From Caldisericota bacterium (GTDB taxonomy: Bacteria > Caldisericota > Caldisericia > UBA6126): a stretch of DNA of 40,231 nt. Of this stretch, positions 1 through 13,948 are shown one piece after another; positions within the stretch are counted from its first letter, which is position 1, and every line of letters begins with the position of its first letter. Under the pieces are notes generated by a model, which was not told where the DNA came from, made no database searches, and saw only the letters and a program-made list of their open reading frames with translations. Where the stretch lies: positions 1 to 40,231 of the forward strand of contig PXBT01000189.1 in the NCBI GenBank assembly GCA_003566815.1. Reading direction: 5' to 3'. Both the position numbers and the translations under genes were made by a program.

Positions 1-1858
1 CTGCAATCATTTTCATTTTCATCCTCTTCCGTGCCTCCATTCTCATTTTTGCTTTGGGAGGCGGTGGTCTGCTTCACACTGTCAAAAGTGCTCACCTGCT
101 GGCCCAGGAAGTAATAGTTCACGGTAACATTGCTCACCATGCGTCCCTGCATTGGGGAGCCTTCATAGGCGGTAATGGTTTCCGTGAGTCCAAGGGCATT
201 GTAGCCGAATTCAGTGACATGGCCTCCAAAGTCGGGGGTGCTCAGGAGGGCTCCCGTGTAAGGGCTGTAGCTTAAGCTCATGCTTTTGGGACCATTTACA
301 GAGGGAGTGGTGATGGTTTGGGGAAAACCATCCGGAGTGTAGCTGATTTGGGTGGTTTGGCCCAGTGCATCGGTAATATCGGAAGGCTGGCAGGGGTTGT
401 TGGGATCCTGGTAGTCAAAGGTGGTGGTGGCCCATACAGTGGGAGTGACCCGTTCCCTGTGCTGGACGAGCAAGCCGTCCACGTTGTTGGGGGGCTGGTA
501 GGTCCATTCCTGACGGGAAGGGGTGATGCCCTGTTCAGGGGGAGGGCCTTCCCGACTGATCAGGTGACCCACCTGGTTGTAGTCCATGGTGGTGGTGTGC
601 CCCAAAGGGTTCGTCACACTGCTTCGCCAGCCTTCGGGAGTGTAAGTGATGTTCCAGGTGCTGGTGTCCTGCCCGGTTCCCTGTTCCATGTGGATAAGGA
701 AGCCCTCATTATTAAAGCCGTAGTGATATTCCCGTTCTTCTCCATCGATAAAGGTGGTCTTGAGTTCCATGCCCTGCACCTGATCCTCATACTCCACCTG
801 GCTGAAAGCTTCGGAAGGGTCCGTCCAGCCTTTGAACCATGTGTCAAAGGTGCCGCTGGTATAGTAATCAATCGCATAGGTATAGCCCATGCGATCGGTA
901 TGTTCATTCATGAAGCCTGTTAAGGCGTCATAGCCAAACTCAAGGGCGGGAGGGTCTGGATCCGCAGAAGGAGGCGTGAGGCTGATCAGGTAGTCATCTC
1001 CTCCGTCATAGCCCAGTTCCCAGGAGCGACCTGCGGGGTCTTCCATTTCCAGCAGTTTACCCTGCGGGCTCCAGTGAAGCTCAATGCTGCGCCCACTGAG
1101 GCCATCGGTGATTTCCGAGGGGCGTCCCTGCTCATAGCTGATTTCCTGATAGCCTGCTGTGCAGGAGTCTTCTATCTTTTCCAAGTGGCCGTCCTGCCCA
1201 AAGATCAGGGCATTTCCCTGCAGGGGAGTGATGCTGATGTTGCCGTTCCCGAGGATTTCAGCTTTTCCGGCAAAACCATAGGGGTTAAGGTAGGAAGCTG
1301 TTGAAGCATCCCAGGTAAAGTTCAGGTGTTGCCCCGTGGAGGTGACATAAAGGATGTCCATGCTTAAGGGGTCCAGGGTGGCGGACGTATGAATATGCAT
1401 CATCCAGCCCTTGCCCAGACCGATATCCAGATCAGCATTGAAGTGATTGTACACAAGGGTGAGCCGTAAGGGTAAAGGCGTGCCGGGCAAGTCGATGGGG
1501 GTGACCACTGCCATGGCATTGCCGGTGGCTATATTGGCAGCCAAGGTGCTCCATTTCGTGGTGGCCAGGTACATCATGTTCTCTGAAGTCCCGCTCATGC
1601 CGGCCTCGGGATCGCCCTGGGTGGCCAGACTCATGGGGTACATGCGGGAGCTGTAAAATGAAAAAGTGCCCAGCATCTGGGCTAAAGGTTGAGGCATCGC
1701 TATCATAAAGAACATCACAAAGGCTACGAAAACAGCCAGGCATCGAGTTACACAGGAAACAGCACCTTTCTCACCTGTGCTCACCCGGGTGCTTACGCTC
1801 TCTCTCTCTCTCTCTCTCTCTGAAAAACCCTGTCATCCTTCAAGTTTCTAAAAAACAT
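1..1858 (-). CDS. Secreted RHS/YD-repeat protein, 5' part only (runs off the left edge), frameshifted near its start by an (AG)12 tract
   Basis: Hand translation of the minus frame from 1832 to the edge gives a hydrophobic signal/TM segment (CLAVFVAFVMFFMIAMPQP), a DUF6531-like region (NIATGN..IDLPGTPLPLRLTLVYN..GLGKGW) and YD-type repeats (MEDPAGRSWELGYD, VTNPLGHTTTMDY, ITDALGQTTQISY). SD AAGGAG at 1870-1865 precedes an ATG at 1858 that is in a different frame. Confidence 0.88.
1798..1821. repeat. Dinucleotide microsatellite (CT)12 / (AG)12 in the 5' coding region of the RHS gene
   Basis: Read directly: 24 nt of perfect CT alternation at 1798-1821. Confidence 0.97.
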
Positions 1859-2141
1859 GCTTCACTCCTTTCTAAAGGTAAATTAAATAAATAGAATTAA
1901 AAACCTCCACAACGAAAATACCTTGCCACTGAAAAATCCAAAAAAAGCATAGCTCGCCTGTAGGAAAAGGAAATCATTTGCTGTTGCGCTTCTGCACATT
2001 GCTCTGCTTGCATCATCCTGCACATCATGTTCCACTCCTATGGGAAAGAGCTTGTATATTTTCATTTAAGCTATAATTTTATGTTTGTCAATAGTTTTGA
2101 AGAGGTATTTTTATCCAACGTTGAAGGATGTGAAAAAAAAG

Positions 2142-2172: not shown

Positions 2173-2200
2173 TTGGTATAAGTTAGGTTTCTGTTATAAT
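2173..2200 (+). promoter_or_regulatory. Sigma70-type promoter for the lysine operon
   Basis: TTGGTA-16 nt-TATAAT with extended -10 (TGtTATAAT, 2192-2200), just upstream of the riboswitch. Confidence 0.55.
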
Positions 2201-2224
2201 ATATATTAATTATTGACAATTTGA

Positions 2225-2399
2225 AAAGTGCGGAGGAGCGATTTATGCGTATTTTGTATGTGCCTGAGGAGGTAAGTGTACAGAAAAGGGGTAAATCGCC
2301 GAAGGCTTTGTTTTCCTCAAAACAATGACCTGGGGATGCAAGAGAGACTTGCATCACTGTCATGAAGCTTATTTTGCTTCCTGAAGAGCCGTTAAACTT
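2225..2399 (+). ncRNA. Lysine riboswitch (L-box)
   Basis: L-box motifs in order (GGAGGAGCG, AAAGGGG..ATCGCCGAAG, CTGGG, ACTGTCA, TGAAGAGC) directly upstream of asd and the lysine operon. Confidence 0.9.
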
Positions 2400-2479: not shown

Positions 2480-3439
2480 ATGCGCATAGGAATAGTGGGT
2501 GCTACAGGACTCACCGGAAGAACATTGCTTGATATTTTGGAAAAGGCACCTGAACCCGTTGAAATTGCCTATCTTTCTGCATCATCTTCATCAGCAGGAA
2601 GAGAAATATCCTTTAAAGACCAATCCATAGAAATTGTTACCACAGATCAGTATGCTTTGTCGCAATCGGTGGATATAGTTTTTATGGCTTGCTCGACAGA
2701 GCTATCGATGGAGTGGGTACCCAGAGCTCTCGAACATTGCTCCTGGGTGATCGATTTTTCCAGTGCATTCCGTATGAAAAAAGAGGTACCTTTGGTGGTG
2801 CCGGAGATTAATGGAGATGTGCTGGAAAATTATAAGGGGCTGATTGCCAATCCCAACTGCAGTACGATTCAGTTGGCAAAAACCTGTCATCCTCTCGCCA
2901 AAAAGTATGGTTTGCAGAAAGTTGTGGTTTCTACCTATCAGTCGGTTTCTGGAATGGGTCAGAAAGGGATAGATCAGCTTCAAAAAGAAGAAGAGGGCAT
3001 GCTGTTTGCTGAAAACTTGCCACTGCATCATAATGTAGTGCCCTGGATAGGCCCTTTTACCCGTGATGATTATTGTGATGAAGAACAAAAAATTATTGAA
3101 GAAATGCGAAAGATATTGAGAATTCCCGGGCTTCCTGTTTATCCCACAACGGTCAGAGTCCCAGTGCCTATATGTCATGGCGAGTCGGTGTATCTGGAAA
3201 CTGAACGATCCCTTGGCGTGCAGGAAGCTATTGATCTTTGGAAGCAGACGGAAGGTTTGCAATATACTCATGAAATTGCTTGTCCGGTGCATATGGCGCA
3301 TCAAAATGAAGTTTTGATTGGTCATGCCCGTTCACCTGAAGGAAATATTCTGCAATTCTGGTCGGTAGCTGATAACCTGAGAGTGGGTTCCGCATGGAAT
3401 GCATACCAAATTCTCAAGCTATTGGACAATTGGGTGTAA
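2480..3439 (+). CDS. asd: Aspartate-semialdehyde dehydrogenase
   Basis: GIVGATG Rossmann motif, IANPNCSTIQ catalytic Cys, STYQSVSG, ADNLRVG; SD AGGAGG. Confidence 0.97.
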   Translation: MRIGIVGATGLTGRTLLDILEKAPEPVEIAYLSASSSSAGREISFKDQSIEIVTTDQYALSQSVDIVFMACSTELSMEWVPRALEHCSWVIDFSSAFRMKKEVPLVVPEINGDVLENYKGLIANPNCSTIQLAKTCHPLAKKYGLQKVVVSTYQSVSGMGQKGIDQLQKEEEGMLFAENLPLHHNVVPWIGPFTRDDYCDEEQKIIEEMRKILRIPGLPVYPTTVRVPVPICHGESVYLETERSLGVQEAIDLWKQTEGLQYTHEIACPVHMAHQNEVLIGHARSPEGNILQFWSVADNLRVGSAWNAYQILKLLDNWV

Positions 3440-9968: not shown

Positions 9969-11050
9969 GTCCCATAGAACTACGACATTGGATGCATGAA
10001 CATCCGGAGCTTTCTTTCCAGGAGGAGCAAGTTACCCGTCTTCTACTGGAAGAGCTGTTGGGCTGGAAAGACTTAAAGCTGTTGCGACCCTTGAATACTG
10101 GATTGGTTGCAGTGCATCAGCCCAGACCTGAGGAGCCTTTTGTCTTGTTTAGGGCGGACATGGATGCTTTACCCATGAGGGATGATGCAAATGGGAAAAT
10201 GAAGCCCATGCATTCGTGCGGACATGATGTGCATACTGCTATTTTGTTTGGTCTGATCCAGCGATGCCTGGAAGAGCAAGTCCAGACTAATGCGGTCTTT
10301 GTTTTTCAACCTGCAGAAGAGACTGGCGGAGGGGCAAAACATTTGCTGGACAGTGGAGTGCTGGAGCCTTATAAAATACAGTCTGCCTATGCTTTACATG
10401 TTTCCGATGCTTTTCCTTTGGGGACAATAGCCAGCGCCATGCCTACCCTATTTTCTTCTTCGCAGGAGCTGGATTTGCATTGGAAAGGCATGCAGAGCCA
10501 TATTACTCAGCCTGAAAAAGGTCGCGACACCTGGAAGGCTTGCGTAGCTTTGGAACAATGGAAAGCAAACTCACAGGATCTATTGTCAGAGGGCTTTTTT
10601 TTGGGAATAGGTCAGGTGGAGGCAGGGACTGTGCGCAATAGTGTATCTGATAGTGCAGTGATGCGTATGACTGCGCGAGGGAAAACTACAGAGATTTTGC
10701 ACAAGGGTCTTGAAAAAGTCCAGCAAGCTGTGCGTGAAGTTGAACTTAAATATGGCGTGGAGGCTTCGTTGACTTATGGCTCTTATTACCCCGCGGTGGA
10801 ACAAAATCAGGAACTGTTTGACCGGTGGATGAAAGATTTTGGTGAACAGGGGAAAGTGGAAAACTGTGATCCTGTATGGGCTGCGGAAGACTTTGGCTTT
10901 TTTGCGCAACAATACCCTTCATGGATGTTTTGGCTGGGCACTCGTCTTGCAGGTGAGCCTGCTTATGGACTTCATCACCGAAAATTCTATCCCCCGGATG
11001 ATGCTATTAATGAGGGGATTAATGTTTTTTTTAAGTTATTGAGCAAGTAA
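9962..11050 (+). CDS. M20 amidohydrolase, N-acetyldiaminopimelate deacetylase (YkuR-like)
   Basis: HPELSFQE, RADMDAL, MHSCGHDVH, FQPAEE, AEDFG; last gene of the dap operon. Confidence 0.88.
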   Translation: MLSPIELRHWMHEHPELSFQEEQVTRLLLEELLGWKDLKLLRPLNTGLVAVHQPRPEEPFVLFRADMDALPMRDDANGKMKPMHSCGHDVHTAILFGLIQRCLEEQVQTNAVFVFQPAEETGGGAKHLLDSGVLEPYKIQSAYALHVSDAFPLGTIASAMPTLFSSSQELDLHWKGMQSHITQPEKGRDTWKACVALEQWKANSQDLLSEGFFLGIGQVEAGTVRNSVSDSAVMRMTARGKTTEILHKGLEKVQQAVREVELKYGVEASLTYGSYYPAVEQNQELFDRWMKDFGEQGKVENCDPVWAAEDFGFFAQQYPSWMFWLGTRLAGEPAYGLHHRKFYPPDDAINEGINVFFKLLSK

Positions 11051-13948
11051 ATATAAGTTAATTTTTTCATCGGGTTCATTTACCAGGATTACTATTTTAT
11101 TTTGTTTCTGTTCAATTATTTCTATGGTTTCAGTCTTGTTGCTTTCAATCCTGATTTTGGTCAGATCGGTTTTTTCAGATTTCACGACAAGCGGAGCTCC
11201 TGAAAACATAAAACCTGACCATTTTCCATCATCTATATAAACCCCTGGTCCATCTTTGGACAATGGAATCGTATGCACTATGATATCATCAGCAGTATCC
11301 AGTCCGTGGATATTTAATTCAAAAGATCCTGAAATGTCTTCAAAGTAATCGATGAGTTGATTTCGAAACCTTTCAGGGCGATGATGAGCAAAATCTATCA
11401 TGATATTGATTTCTTCGTTCCAGGTTTCAGGACAGGGTAGTTTCCATCTCTTGTAATGGGTTTTTATTTCCGGCTCAATAACAGATTTATGTTCAGTTAT
11501 TGTTGAGGTCACTCGATCAGGATGAAAAGTTGTATTTAAGTGGATGGCAACTCTTTGAATGAATTCATTTAATACTTCTTCCCGGCCCAGGATGTCTTGG
11601 AAAAAAGTCATGGATTGTTGCAATGAAGGAAATTTTTTTTCATCCAACACAAAATGAAACATGTTGAATTCCTGATCTTCTTTCTGCAAAAAGTAGCGAC
11701 CGAGAGAAAAATCCAAATCAAAGAGAAACCATCGCCATCGTCCATCAAAGGGCCCTCTCTCGCTACTGGTTTTGGGACCAAAATATCGCCAGAATTTGAT
11801 ATTATTGGTGGGCCAGTCACTGTTGACTGCATAAAAGTGGGTGACGACATAATCTAATAACTCATGCAATGCTATATATTGATCAATGCAATTTAAGCTT
11901 TCATATTGACCAGTGTTTAATTGGTGGGCAAAAGTTAAAAAATCATGTACATGCGCAGGCTCTCCGCAATATGTTGTTACTCTCCCCAAAAAGCTTTCAA
12001 GTATGGAAATATTGTTTAAAGGCAGTTTGTGATGAGTGTGCACATAGTAATGATCAAATCGGTCGCGCAAGTTGTGAATGCCCCAATATTCTCCATTAAT
12101 AAACACAATAGTGGGCTGATAGTGTTGTGTGTCTATAGACAAATGGCGCACCAGGGATTGCATGATGGCATCTCTCATCAACCCATGAGAGGCATCCTGA
12201 CCTGCATTTCTTAAAATAAAATTGTAATAAACATCATTTTTTTTGCTGTTAAAAAACGGATAGTTTAATGGATATGAAGCATAGTTTTTCTGAGGATAAA
12301 TTCTTAATGACTTCTGAGGGTAGGATCGGCTTCCTTTTCCATGAATTCTTAATCCTGTTTTTTGATGCAATGCGCGAAGACCCTGTTGGTCAAAATATTC
12401 AAAATATCCTATTCGCTCCCATTGCTTGCCTCTCTGCGCAAAGTTTCCTGTTCTGATCAGGGTATGCTCATAATGAGCTCCAGGAACATAGATTCCATAA
12501 TCATGATCAAATAAATGGGACCGATCTGTTGAAATACTTATGACAGGCAAATTTTTATATTCGACTGAGGATTGAAAAAAATAAGTATTTGTTTTAGTTC
12601 TTGATGGATAGTTATTTTTAATGGATATTGCTTTGACCACCAGGGCTTTGGGGGTATCATCATCAGGTTTTTTCCAGGGTAGATGCCAAAAGGACAAACC
12701 TTGTTCGTGGCCCTCAATAAGGTCAAGAAAATTGGTGGGCAGGGTTGAAATATCAAGTTCTCTTTCTATGTGGCGCTGAAGGTCGATAGGATTACTGTAT
12801 AGGTAGGTTCTTGATCTGGTTTCTCTGGGCAGGGAAGCCCAGGTTTCATTGTCCATTACATGCTGGGGATCTGGAACTGATCCATCCAGGGTGTAGTAAA
12901 TGTCATAGCCTTCTTTGCTTTCGAGACTCAAAAGAAAATGATTGGAGTAGAAGCCAGCAGGATGTGAAAATCTTGGAGGCAGAATGTTAAAATCCGGGAG
13001 ATGTTGGGGATACCTAAAGGTAATATTTCCCCAAAAAGGCCTTATGGGAGCAAAAAAGTCATTTGCTATGCTTTGTTCGTGGCTATGATTGAGTCGAAGG
13101 TCTATTTCTTCAATCATGCCCAGCTTTAATATATCTCCAAGAATAGAAAAATCGGTAATTCCCGTGTTTCTCAGGTTGAGCCTTTTAAGGTTTTCCATGT
13201 TTGAAATTATTTCTATTTCATTTCCTATGTGAATATTTGGAGCAATAAATGTTTCCAGCTGAGAAAGATTTTGCAGAGGTCGAATAGAATGAATAGAAGA
13301 GTTGGAGTGAATATTTAAATACTTCAATTTGGAAAGGTTTGACAGAGGGGTTAAATCTTGTATTAAGTTTTCTCTCAAGTTGAGAGATCTTAAATTGCTT
13401 AACTTTTCCAGGGGGGCGATGTTTTGGATATGATTTCCCATTAAATTGAGTTCTTCCAATGTTGTCAGGTTTTGCAATAGTTGAATATCTTTCATTTTCT
13501 CGATTTCTCCGCTGGAGCTTATTTTTCCATTATGGCTCAGATCCAGGGATAGCAAAGGGGTATTTAACAAATGGTCAAAGCCTGCTTTTTCCAGATCAGT
13601 GATACCATTTTTGCTCAGGTTGATTTCTCTTAAATATGCCAGATCTTTCAATGACTCAAGGTTTTTTATCCTATTATAGGAAAGATCTATGCTGACTAGT
13701 TTTGGAACTAGTTCTATCCCATCCAGGTGTTGGATATTTCTCCTTGAAAGGTTCAAATAATGTATTTTAAGCAAATCACTTCTTTTTATTGGGTGCGAAG
13801 GATCAGATGGCATGCTTAATGCGCATCGAATTGCTTGTTCCAGATGAATGTCCTTGAAGGATACTCCCCACTGATTAATCTTTGGAATCAGTTGATTGAG
13901 GAAAATAAAAAAAACAATGATAGCAACAAAAATACCTGCTTTACGAAT
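11036..13948 (-). CDS. Membrane-anchored leucine-rich-repeat + Fn3-associated + CotH-family kinase protein
   Basis: LRRs (LxxLxLxxNxIxxL), PPRFSHPAGFY..IYYTLDGS domain, CotH motifs (RIHGKGSR..QKSL, NSDWPTNN, WRWFLFDLD). The frame stays open 47 codons upstream of ATG 13813 and encodes a TM helix and LRR cap, so the start is placed at ATT 13948. Confidence 0.87.
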   Translation of the reverse strand: MRKAGIFVAIIVFFIFLNQLIPKINQWGVSFKDIHLEQAIRCALSMPSDPSHPIKRSDLLKIHYLNLSRRNIQHLDGIELVPKLVSIDLSYNRIKNLESLKDLAYLREINLSKNGITDLEKAGFDHLLNTPLLSLDLSHNGKISSSGEIEKMKDIQLLQNLTTLEELNLMGNHIQNIAPLEKLSNLRSLNLRENLIQDLTPLSNLSKLKYLNIHSNSSIHSIRPLQNLSQLETFIAPNIHIGNEIEIISNMENLKRLNLRNTGITDFSILGDILKLGMIEEIDLRLNHSHEQSIANDFFAPIRPFWGNITFRYPQHLPDFNILPPRFSHPAGFYSNHFLLSLESKEGYDIYYTLDGSVPDPQHVMDNETWASLPRETRSRTYLYSNPIDLQRHIERELDISTLPTNFLDLIEGHEQGLSFWHLPWKKPDDDTPKALVVKAISIKNNYPSRTKTNTYFFQSSVEYKNLPVISISTDRSHLFDHDYGIYVPGAHYEHTLIRTGNFAQRGKQWERIGYFEYFDQQGLRALHQKTGLRIHGKGSRSYPQKSLRIYPQKNYASYPLNYPFFNSKKNDVYYNFILRNAGQDASHGLMRDAIMQSLVRHLSIDTQHYQPTIVFINGEYWGIHNLRDRFDHYYVHTHHKLPLNNISILESFLGRVTTYCGEPAHVHDFLTFAHQLNTGQYESLNCIDQYIALHELLDYVVTHFYAVNSDWPTNNIKFWRYFGPKTSSERGPFDGRWRWFLFDLDFSLGRYFLQKEDQEFNMFHFVLDEKKFPSLQQSMTFFQDILGREEVLNEFIQRVAIHLNTTFHPDRVTSTITEHKSVIEPEIKTHYKRWKLPCPETWNEEINIMIDFAHHRPERFRNQLIDYFEDISGSFELNIHGLDTADDIIVHTIPLSKDGPGVYIDDGKWSGFMFSGAPLVVKSEKTDLTKIRIESNKTETIEIIEQKQNKIVILVNEPDEKINLYLLAQ

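Follow-up and report, generated by a model that had tools for sequence, protein, structure and literature searches.

Work on phase variation driven by simple sequence repeats has centred almost entirely on host-adapted pathogens; in the papers surveyed here, the organisms are Neisseria, Haemophilus, Campylobacter, Helicobacter and Staphylococcus. The multicopy opa adhesin family of Neisseria carries (CTCTT)n within its signal-peptide codons, and its copies switch independently to give combinatorial expression. The lic genes of Haemophilus influenzae combine tetranucleotide repeats with alternative starts in different frames and encode lipopolysaccharide-modifying products, and promoter-spacer switches are formed by (TA)n between the -35 and -10 elements of H. 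influenzae hif and by homopolymers in Neisseria porA and opc. In Helicobacter pylori, the CT repeat encodes Leu/Ser-type residues, and sabA and babA are further CT-repeat genes of the Hop family. For the Hop-family gene oipA (hopH), one account places CT repeats in the signal-peptide coding region, describes ON/OFF frameshifting by slipped-strand mispairing, and reports many repeat numbers among isolates (PMC10564699); according to another, H. pylori is without MutS1, MutH and MutL and has MutS2 only (PMC5381349). Here we describe a locus of a Caldisericota bacterium, on a 40,231-nucleotide (nt) stretch of DNA (GenBank contig PXBT01000189.1; the whole of contig C19 of assembly G000, hereafter the window), in which an (AG)12 tract lies near the start of a gene encoding an RHS/YD-repeat protein. 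We think it probable that this tract works as a slipped-strand contingency switch, placed where the gene encodes the signal-peptide n-region of a Sec-exported RHS/YD-repeat protein.

The start region of the gene is laid out in Table 1. An earlier sequence-only reading of the window had described a Shine-Dalgarno (SD) sequence, its spacer, an ATG and an early stop codon, and each of these is present. The tract, 37 nt from the ATG (1858-1856) on the reverse strand, is uninterrupted (period 2, 12.0 copies, 100% matches in Tandem Repeats Finder), and with 12 units the reading from the ATG stops two codons past it. The RHS frame, in phase with position 1856, has no stop from 1832 down to base 3, where the contig runs out. 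Its displacement by 2 nt from the ATG frame and its closure upstream by TGA at 1835-1833, both part of the sequence-only reading, are borne out; a second upstream stop, TAG at 1850-1848, lies in the same frame. The arithmetic of the proposed switch holds as well, in that 11 or 14 units restore the register and fuse the ATG to the RHS frame.

Table 1. Features of the start region of the RHS gene, other features of the window, and related AG-tract loci in relatives
Feature	Position	Strand	Basis or detail
Shine-Dalgarno sequence AAGGAG	1865..1870	-	Read directly; 6-nt spacer to ATG
ATG, cassette start and proposed true start of the RHS gene	1856..1858	-	
OFF reading from ATG: 21-codon peptide plus TAA 1795-1793	1793..1858	-	Translation
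(AG)12 tract, Arg/Glu alternation in any frame, proposed slippage site	1798..1821	-	Tandem Repeats Finder, shuffles, census
GTG, first in-frame start listed for the RHS frame, rival start	1782..1784	-	Open reading frame listing
Hydrophobic core of predicted signal peptide (residues 15-29 from GTG 1784)	1698..1742	-	Kyte-Doolittle
RHS/YD-repeat open frame, running off the contig end, at least 610 codons	3..1832	-	Open reading frame listing, Pfam
Promoter-like site before the lysine riboswitch	2173..2200		
Lysine riboswitch RF00168, divergent from the RHS gene	2223..2399	+	Rfam, 79.9 bits
Aspartate-semialdehyde dehydrogenase gene, following the riboswitch	2480..3439	+	
Gene for a 925-residue protein	11036..13813	-	
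Open reading frame running off the other contig end, at least 2283 residues	33382..40230	+	
Family f5 loci L154-L161	G033:C1 133096-133131, 1010733-1010758; G058:C35, C52; G069:C27, C56; G017:C33; G061:C171		
Family f7 loci L164-L168	G088:C102, C250, C39; G090:C151; G091:C295		

In the mechanism we propose, translation would begin at ATG 1858, and AG units gained or lost in replication would shift the RHS body into or out of frame with that codon. Twelve units would correspond to an OFF state and unit numbers equal to 2 modulo 3 (8, 11, 14) to ON states. The AG run would be read as Arg-Glu in every frame, a stop-free and charge-neutral series of residues, and with the tract located in a presumably cleaved n-region, changes in its length should leave the mature protein unaltered. 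We infer slippage as the cause, the reversibility of the switch, the loss of protein in the OFF state and the cleavage of the signal peptide.

The window's tract is far beyond chance. Not even (AG)8 arose in 100 dinucleotide-preserving shuffles of the window, and the 1.86-Mb genome contains 3 AG tracts of at least eight units where about 6.5e-4 are expected under an independent and identically distributed or a first-order Markov model. The distribution of AG-tract lengths in the genome is bimodal, with 640 tracts of three units, 27 of four, 2 of five and none of six to eight; the longest, one each, have 9, 10 and 12 units. The reversed-pattern control included in our genome scans for (AG) tracts of at least eight units is uninformative for a tandem repeat.

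A paralogous RHS gene in the same assembly carries the same arrangement. Contig C20 begins inside its 5' end, which has an identical SD sequence, ATG and 37-nt leader length, but (AG)10; over 262 nt the C20 and C19 5' ends are 89% identical, and the tract is the sole indel. The C20 copy is out of frame, in the OFF phase other than that of C19. With 12 and 10 units the two genes are in opposite OFF phases, and both would therefore be in frame at 11 units. Contig depth over the shared RHS body exceeds that over the C19-specific 5' end (24.7 vs 11 in metagenome run X1; 14.2 vs 5.96 in run X2), a roughly twofold depth as would be seen if the bodies of two genes had been assembled into one. The third RHS gene, on contig C78 (31% identity), is free of any tract and starts with a plain SD-ATG signal peptide. 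Of the other long AG tracts in this genome, for which the sequence-only reading had proposed a scan, the (AG)10 of C20 follows a start codon, and a (GA)9 on contig C58 (762-780, L041) has no start codon before it and no open reading frame (ORF) after it. The TAATCG that comes after the (GA)9 is also found after the tract in some cassette copies, and the (GA)9 may be a cassette remnant.

Beyond this genome, the order of elements recurs as a cassette consisting of an SD sequence, an ATG, a leader of 10-16 codons, (AG)n and a hydrophobic signal peptide. We collected 26 distinct copies with 5-13 units from the genomes of seven relatives and from 11 metagenome contigs; Arg-Glu-repeat N-termini of variable unit number are what the earlier reading had proposed to look for in orthologues. 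In the orthologous gene of a congener (G002:C222), the SD-ATG, a 16-codon leader, (AG)10, the hydrophobic stretch and the RHS body all lie in one frame. Tracts of at least eight units occur in 7 of the 15 genomes of the order, every one in family f1, and 15 of the 16 tracts are located 15-48 nt downstream of a start codon and lead straight into a hydrophobic stretch. The protein families headed by these tracts are RHS proteins of 1325-1384 residues, a small secreted protein in genus g2, and a protein of 762 residues. Genome G001 has five RHS-type switches and one other. Its 762-residue secreted-type protein (G001:C4 62117-64400, L125), for which no Pfam or NCBIfam family was found, has its cassette ON at 10 units; in G002:C176 (L013) the cassette of the same family is OFF at 9. 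With its own tract on each of several RHS paralogues and on two unrelated secreted families, such a system would result in combinatorial, bet-hedged expression.

The metagenome search gave 25 confirmed loci from 202 pattern matches, aligned over the mature N-terminal 200 residues (alignment A1), and 19 of the 25 have a tract of 4-13 units at the cassette position. Locus L153 was excluded from the counts, its match beginning at query residue 80 and leaving the N-terminus uncovered. L142, L145 and L146 were merged with G001:C3, G001:C18 and G002:C222, respectively (flanks 100% identical), L141 was merged with G001:C7 on the basis of shared leader and unit number, and L130-132 were counted once. 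When the 561-nt 5' region was searched as DNA against 60 relatives, only the tract and a short body match were recovered in G002 and G008, together with weak further matches in G020 and G031 (E ~5e-4).

Closely related loci differ in tract length. In pairs compared over 150-nt flanks on each side, L144 and G001:C18 have 11 and 13 units (flank identity 99.3% upstream, 98.7% downstream), L136 and G001:C40 have 8 and 9 (100% and 95.3%), and L147 and L148 have 5 and 6 (98.7% and 95.3%). Two copies in the single-contig complete genome G033 have 18 and 13 units between flanks that are 100% identical on both sides. In these pairs, tract length has changed faster than the flanking sequence. For the window locus itself, the length comparison involves X1 and X2, as no contig of X3 or X4 bridges 1788-1831. 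The X2 contig covers 1698-1870 with 0 gaps and matches the window in length over that span; the X1 contig has 175 letters on the 173 positions of 1698-1870 and no substitutions.

To call frame states, we took the frame of the best SD-ATG relative to the body. Among the 26 distinct 5' ends with at least five units, 8 are in frame (ON) and 18 are out of frame (OFF), and this ON fraction is close to the one-third expected for random phase. All eight RHS 5' ends whose tract is missing, interrupted or just four units long (L133-135, L143, L149-151 and C78; the start codon of L149 is unchecked) are open. The difference in frame state between long-tract and short-tract or tract-free ends has a hypergeometric P = 7e-4, which is indicative only, the loci being related. 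In one OFF frame of the cassette copies, a TAA or TAG codon comes after the tract. Three OFF genes of G001 retain 1320-1375 open codons after the tract, and are therefore undecayed.

Three sister leader groups hold both ON and OFF alleles. The leader MFFKKTNVELPSFS is ON at 7 units and OFF at 8 units (twice); M[AS]KSNF.. is ON at 7 units and OFF at 5 and 6; and MVLKRSFVPS is ON in protein P0019 and OFF at 9 units in G001:C7. The leader MKILFYQNRQ.. was seen ON at both 7 and 10 units, as expected of a three-unit difference, which preserves the frame, and no OFF allele of it was seen. Together with the in-frame G002:C222 gene and the variation in tract length, these mixed alleles support the proposal of the sequence-only reading that a slipped-strand ON/OFF switch operates in the 5' coding region.

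The N-termini produced by in-frame alleles have the expected character of exported proteins. In seven natural in-frame alleles, the n-regions span 25-40 residues and carry net charges of +2 to +5, and the cores have a mean Kyte-Doolittle value of 2.7-3.1, followed by small-x-small-type sites near ..SFAQ (heuristic); for the core encoded in the window, the Kyte-Doolittle mean over 15 residues is 2.92. Judged by this heuristic, the ON-allele N-termini would qualify as Sec signal peptides. Public gene calls for P0001, P0006, P0007, P0011 and P0013-P0021 begin at assorted internal Met, TTG or GTG codons or at upstream starts, depending on tract phase. Gene callers choose arbitrary internal codons, so that the database N-termini of the family are truncated and unreliable.

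The repair background of the lineage bears on how such a tract would behave. In a class sample of 61 genomes (G000 and 60 relatives), MutS1 (TIGR01070) scores above its cut-off in none and MutL (TIGR00585) in one, as a 311-residue piece in G059; many of the 61 genomes are incomplete, and these genes are thus to be described as not found rather than absent. The sole MutS-like gene of G000 is MutS2 (TIGR01069, 758 bits vs a cut-off of 400). The same searches for MutS1 and MutL pass in 11 of 14 control genomes. The class as a whole thus seems to do without canonical mismatch repair, and in a lineage apparently lacking MutS1 and MutL, slips in (AG)n would escape correction.

Several points, the incompleteness of those genomes among them, weigh against a switch at ATG 1858. 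The window's own leader group, MFFRNL.., is OFF throughout, with 12 units in C19, 10 in C20 and 9 in L129, and the X1 variant of the window locus, with its 2 extra letters, would also be OFF; we infer that those letters fall across 1788-1831. A search for a partial ON allele of this group found none among 1093 proteins (335-1068 residues) at E <= 1e-30, and within the P0001 cluster, every member that covers the N-terminus has an internal Met as its start. Tract lengths were taken from assembled contigs or the consensus of metagenome-assembled genomes (MAGs), which can hide minor alleles. The SD-ATG rule decides the ON/OFF calls, and each of three genus g2 copies (G008:C19, G011:C8 and G011:C25) carries a pair of ATGs in different frames, an in-frame TTG lies close by in G001:C7, and the start in G004:C26 is ambiguous. 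Finally, initiation at GTG 1784 would give a 14-residue n-region (+1) followed by the hydrophobic core, a plausible signal peptide.

This last point belongs to the best-surviving alternative, which we regard as unlikely: expression would be constitutive from GTG 1784, directly or by re-initiation, and the tract, as part of a leader or a short upstream ORF, would do no more than modulate the amount of protein made. Of the starts in the long frame, GTG 1784 comes first; it is located 8 nt after the TAA at 1795-1793 that ends the 21-codon frame, and a leader group made up of OFF alleles only is what this alternative would lead one to see. C20 keeps the codon, and L129 (85% identity) reads GTA instead. 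In the three-way alignment of C19, C20 and L129, the interval from the tract to the hydrophobic core holds no other conserved start, while GAAAGGAG, its spacing and the ATG are invariant. Moreover, the only SD sequence ahead of GTG 1784 would be the tract itself, at a distance of 13 nt. Sister genes read in a single frame from the upstream ATG through the tract, and several of them have no start codon between the tract and the core.

Much less probable still is the possibility that the window's RHS copy is a decaying pseudogene, with a frameshift fixed in a repeat that once switched. That every member seen of the window's leader group is out of frame would suit such decay. However, the frame remains open for at least 594 codons in the window and for 1381 residues in P0001, and the tract is perfect and uninterrupted. 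The three copies are in differing OFF phases (9/12 vs 10 units), as ongoing slippage predicts.

We give very little credence to the idea that the DNA length is fixed and that transcriptional slippage, or programmed frameshifting along the AG run, restores the frame. Nothing specific favors it beyond the general knowledge that repeats can provoke polymerase slippage, and it is at odds with the differing DNA tract lengths of near-identical loci. Transcriptional slippage is, moreover, known mostly on homopolymers, and no frameshift stimulator was seen, none having been searched for. Just as hard to credit is an assembly or sequencing artefact hiding a gene that is truly in frame: the window is a MAG contig and dinucleotide repeats do stutter in libraries based on the polymerase chain reaction, but the independent X2 assembly has the same length with 0 gaps, the X1 contig, with 2 more letters, is also out of frame, and 18 of 26 comparable loci are out of frame across many assemblies.

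The slipped-strand switch proposed for the window may be one of two modes in which AG tracts are used in this phylum, where tracts of at least eight units occur in 17 of 93 genomes. In family f5, each of the eight (AG)n tracts is bordered directly by TTGACA on one side and by a TATAAT-like hexamer on the other. The resulting spacers measure 16-18 nt in four cases (8-9 units) and at least 26 nt in the other four (13-18 units), and the tracts are found 148-389 nt upstream of ORFs, most of which have signal-peptide-like N-termini. The f5 tracts look like promoter-spacer phase switches, a candidate second mode in these relatives. In 10 promoter-type and other loci, Rfam returned nothing at gathering score. 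A further arrangement was observed in family f7, which has higher G+C; here, (AG)12-16 tracts occur within ORFs, next to the start of a conserved PAS-like segment, and some of the contigs break off at the tract. The wider proposal is an (AG)n contingency system acting on secreted proteins throughout the Caldisericota, a deep-branching phylum of free-living and mostly uncultured bacteria. It would be translational in the soda-lake family and transcriptional in the other, and would be favored by an apparent class-wide lack of MutS1 and MutL; the RHS paralogues would form a bet-hedged arsenal or a phage-evasion device, in a sediment community in nature and not within a host. We hold this to be an even bet.

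The protein governed by the tract is incomplete in the window, its gene being cut by the contig end so that the C-terminus is missing. The 610-residue translation matches Pfam RHS_repeat (PF05593, E 4.5e-11), and the closest full-length relative, P0001 (1381 residues), is 85% identical to it. Relatives in G001 contain RHS repeats at E 1e-22 to 1e-41 along with DUF6531. The G001 RHS paralogues share a body to about residues 1150-1209 and then diverge into unrelated C-termini of about 170-200 residues; a conserved body with divergent C-termini is, as far as such comparisons can tell, a polymorphic-toxin layout. Core ends of RHS toxins are marked by a DPxGL-type autoproteolysis motif. We found the corresponding DP.G[LWM] pattern in 0 of 4 sequences with a simple pattern search, and no toxin domain was recognised in the G001 RHS relatives. 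No immunity gene was identified either, the region downstream of the RHS gene lying outside the window. The candidate toxin named in the sequence-only reading draws on the RHS repeats and on the variable C-termini of the relatives. By analogy with the RHS layout of those relatives, the protein may act as a toxin.

The host is a free-living soda- or salt-lake Caldisericota bacterium. The runs that contain at least half of the sampled words of positions 1500-2400 (5 of the 10 runs listed) are soda-lake, salt-lake and alkali-sediment metagenomes, and NCBI gives 'Caldisericia bacterium' as the source of two RHS relatives. The prolyl-tRNA synthetase of the assembly is nearest, at 69% identity, to those of MAGs assigned to Caldisericia or Caldisericota. 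The G000 assembly comprises 220 contigs and 1.86 Mb and is 94.8% complete. Upstream of the cassette, run contigs branch at 1870/1879 and at 2076-2085, with loose ends, suggesting that this stretch varies between strains or copies.

Among the neighboring features (Table 1), the lysine riboswitch followed by an aspartate-semialdehyde dehydrogenase gene is an ordinary arrangement, and no other RNA family was detected by Rfam near the tract. The 925-residue protein combines leucine-rich repeats with an Fn3-associated domain and a CotH kinase domain. At the far end of the window, the long ORF begins with a plain signal peptide and has no Pfam or NCBIfam match; its product is predicted to be a giant secreted protein without family.

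A literature search at the level of titles and abstracts turned up no account of an RHS gene whose phase variation is driven by a repeat, nor any relevant work on mismatch repair in Caldisericum. If our interpretation is correct, the device known from the pathogens named at the outset governs RHS toxin-like proteins, among other secreted products, in an extremophile lineage that is free-living and apparently lacks canonical mismatch repair, and populations may be mosaics of cells bearing different secreted weapons or surface proteins. G033, a complete genome in a single contig, might be a convenient entry point for experiments, since its two copies differ in units (18 and 13) between identical flanks.

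WapA of Bacillus subtilis is a Sec-exported RHS/YD-repeat protein, and like such RHS polymorphic toxins the protein of the window has RHS repeats and a signal-peptide-like N-terminus, and its relatives have DUF6531, a body of about 1150-1200 residues and C-termini of about 170-200 residues; unlike in those toxins, the DPxG[LWM] motif, sought as a simple pattern, and a known toxin domain were not found. The promoter-spacer switch of the H. influenzae hif type resembles the family f5 tracts and not the mechanism of the window. In having two ATGs in two frames before the tract, the three genus g2 copies noted above are similar to H. influenzae lic, with a different repeat unit; with two such ATGs, two of the three phases could be translated. 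Neisseria opa shares with the window cassette a repeat inside the leader codons and differs in its pentanucleotide unit, its pathogen host and its adhesin products.

By analogy, the H. pylori CT-repeat switch is the closest known system, the two having no sequence homology. Here, the sense strand is the purine strand and encodes Arg-Glu in a charged n-region. RHS proteins and two unnamed secreted families take the place of beta-barrel porins as targets, and the host is a free-living soda-lake Caldisericota rather than a host-adapted pathogen. The two systems have in common a CT/AG duplex repeat, its position in the region coding for the signal peptide, ON/OFF control by frameshift, and an apparent lack of canonical mismatch repair.

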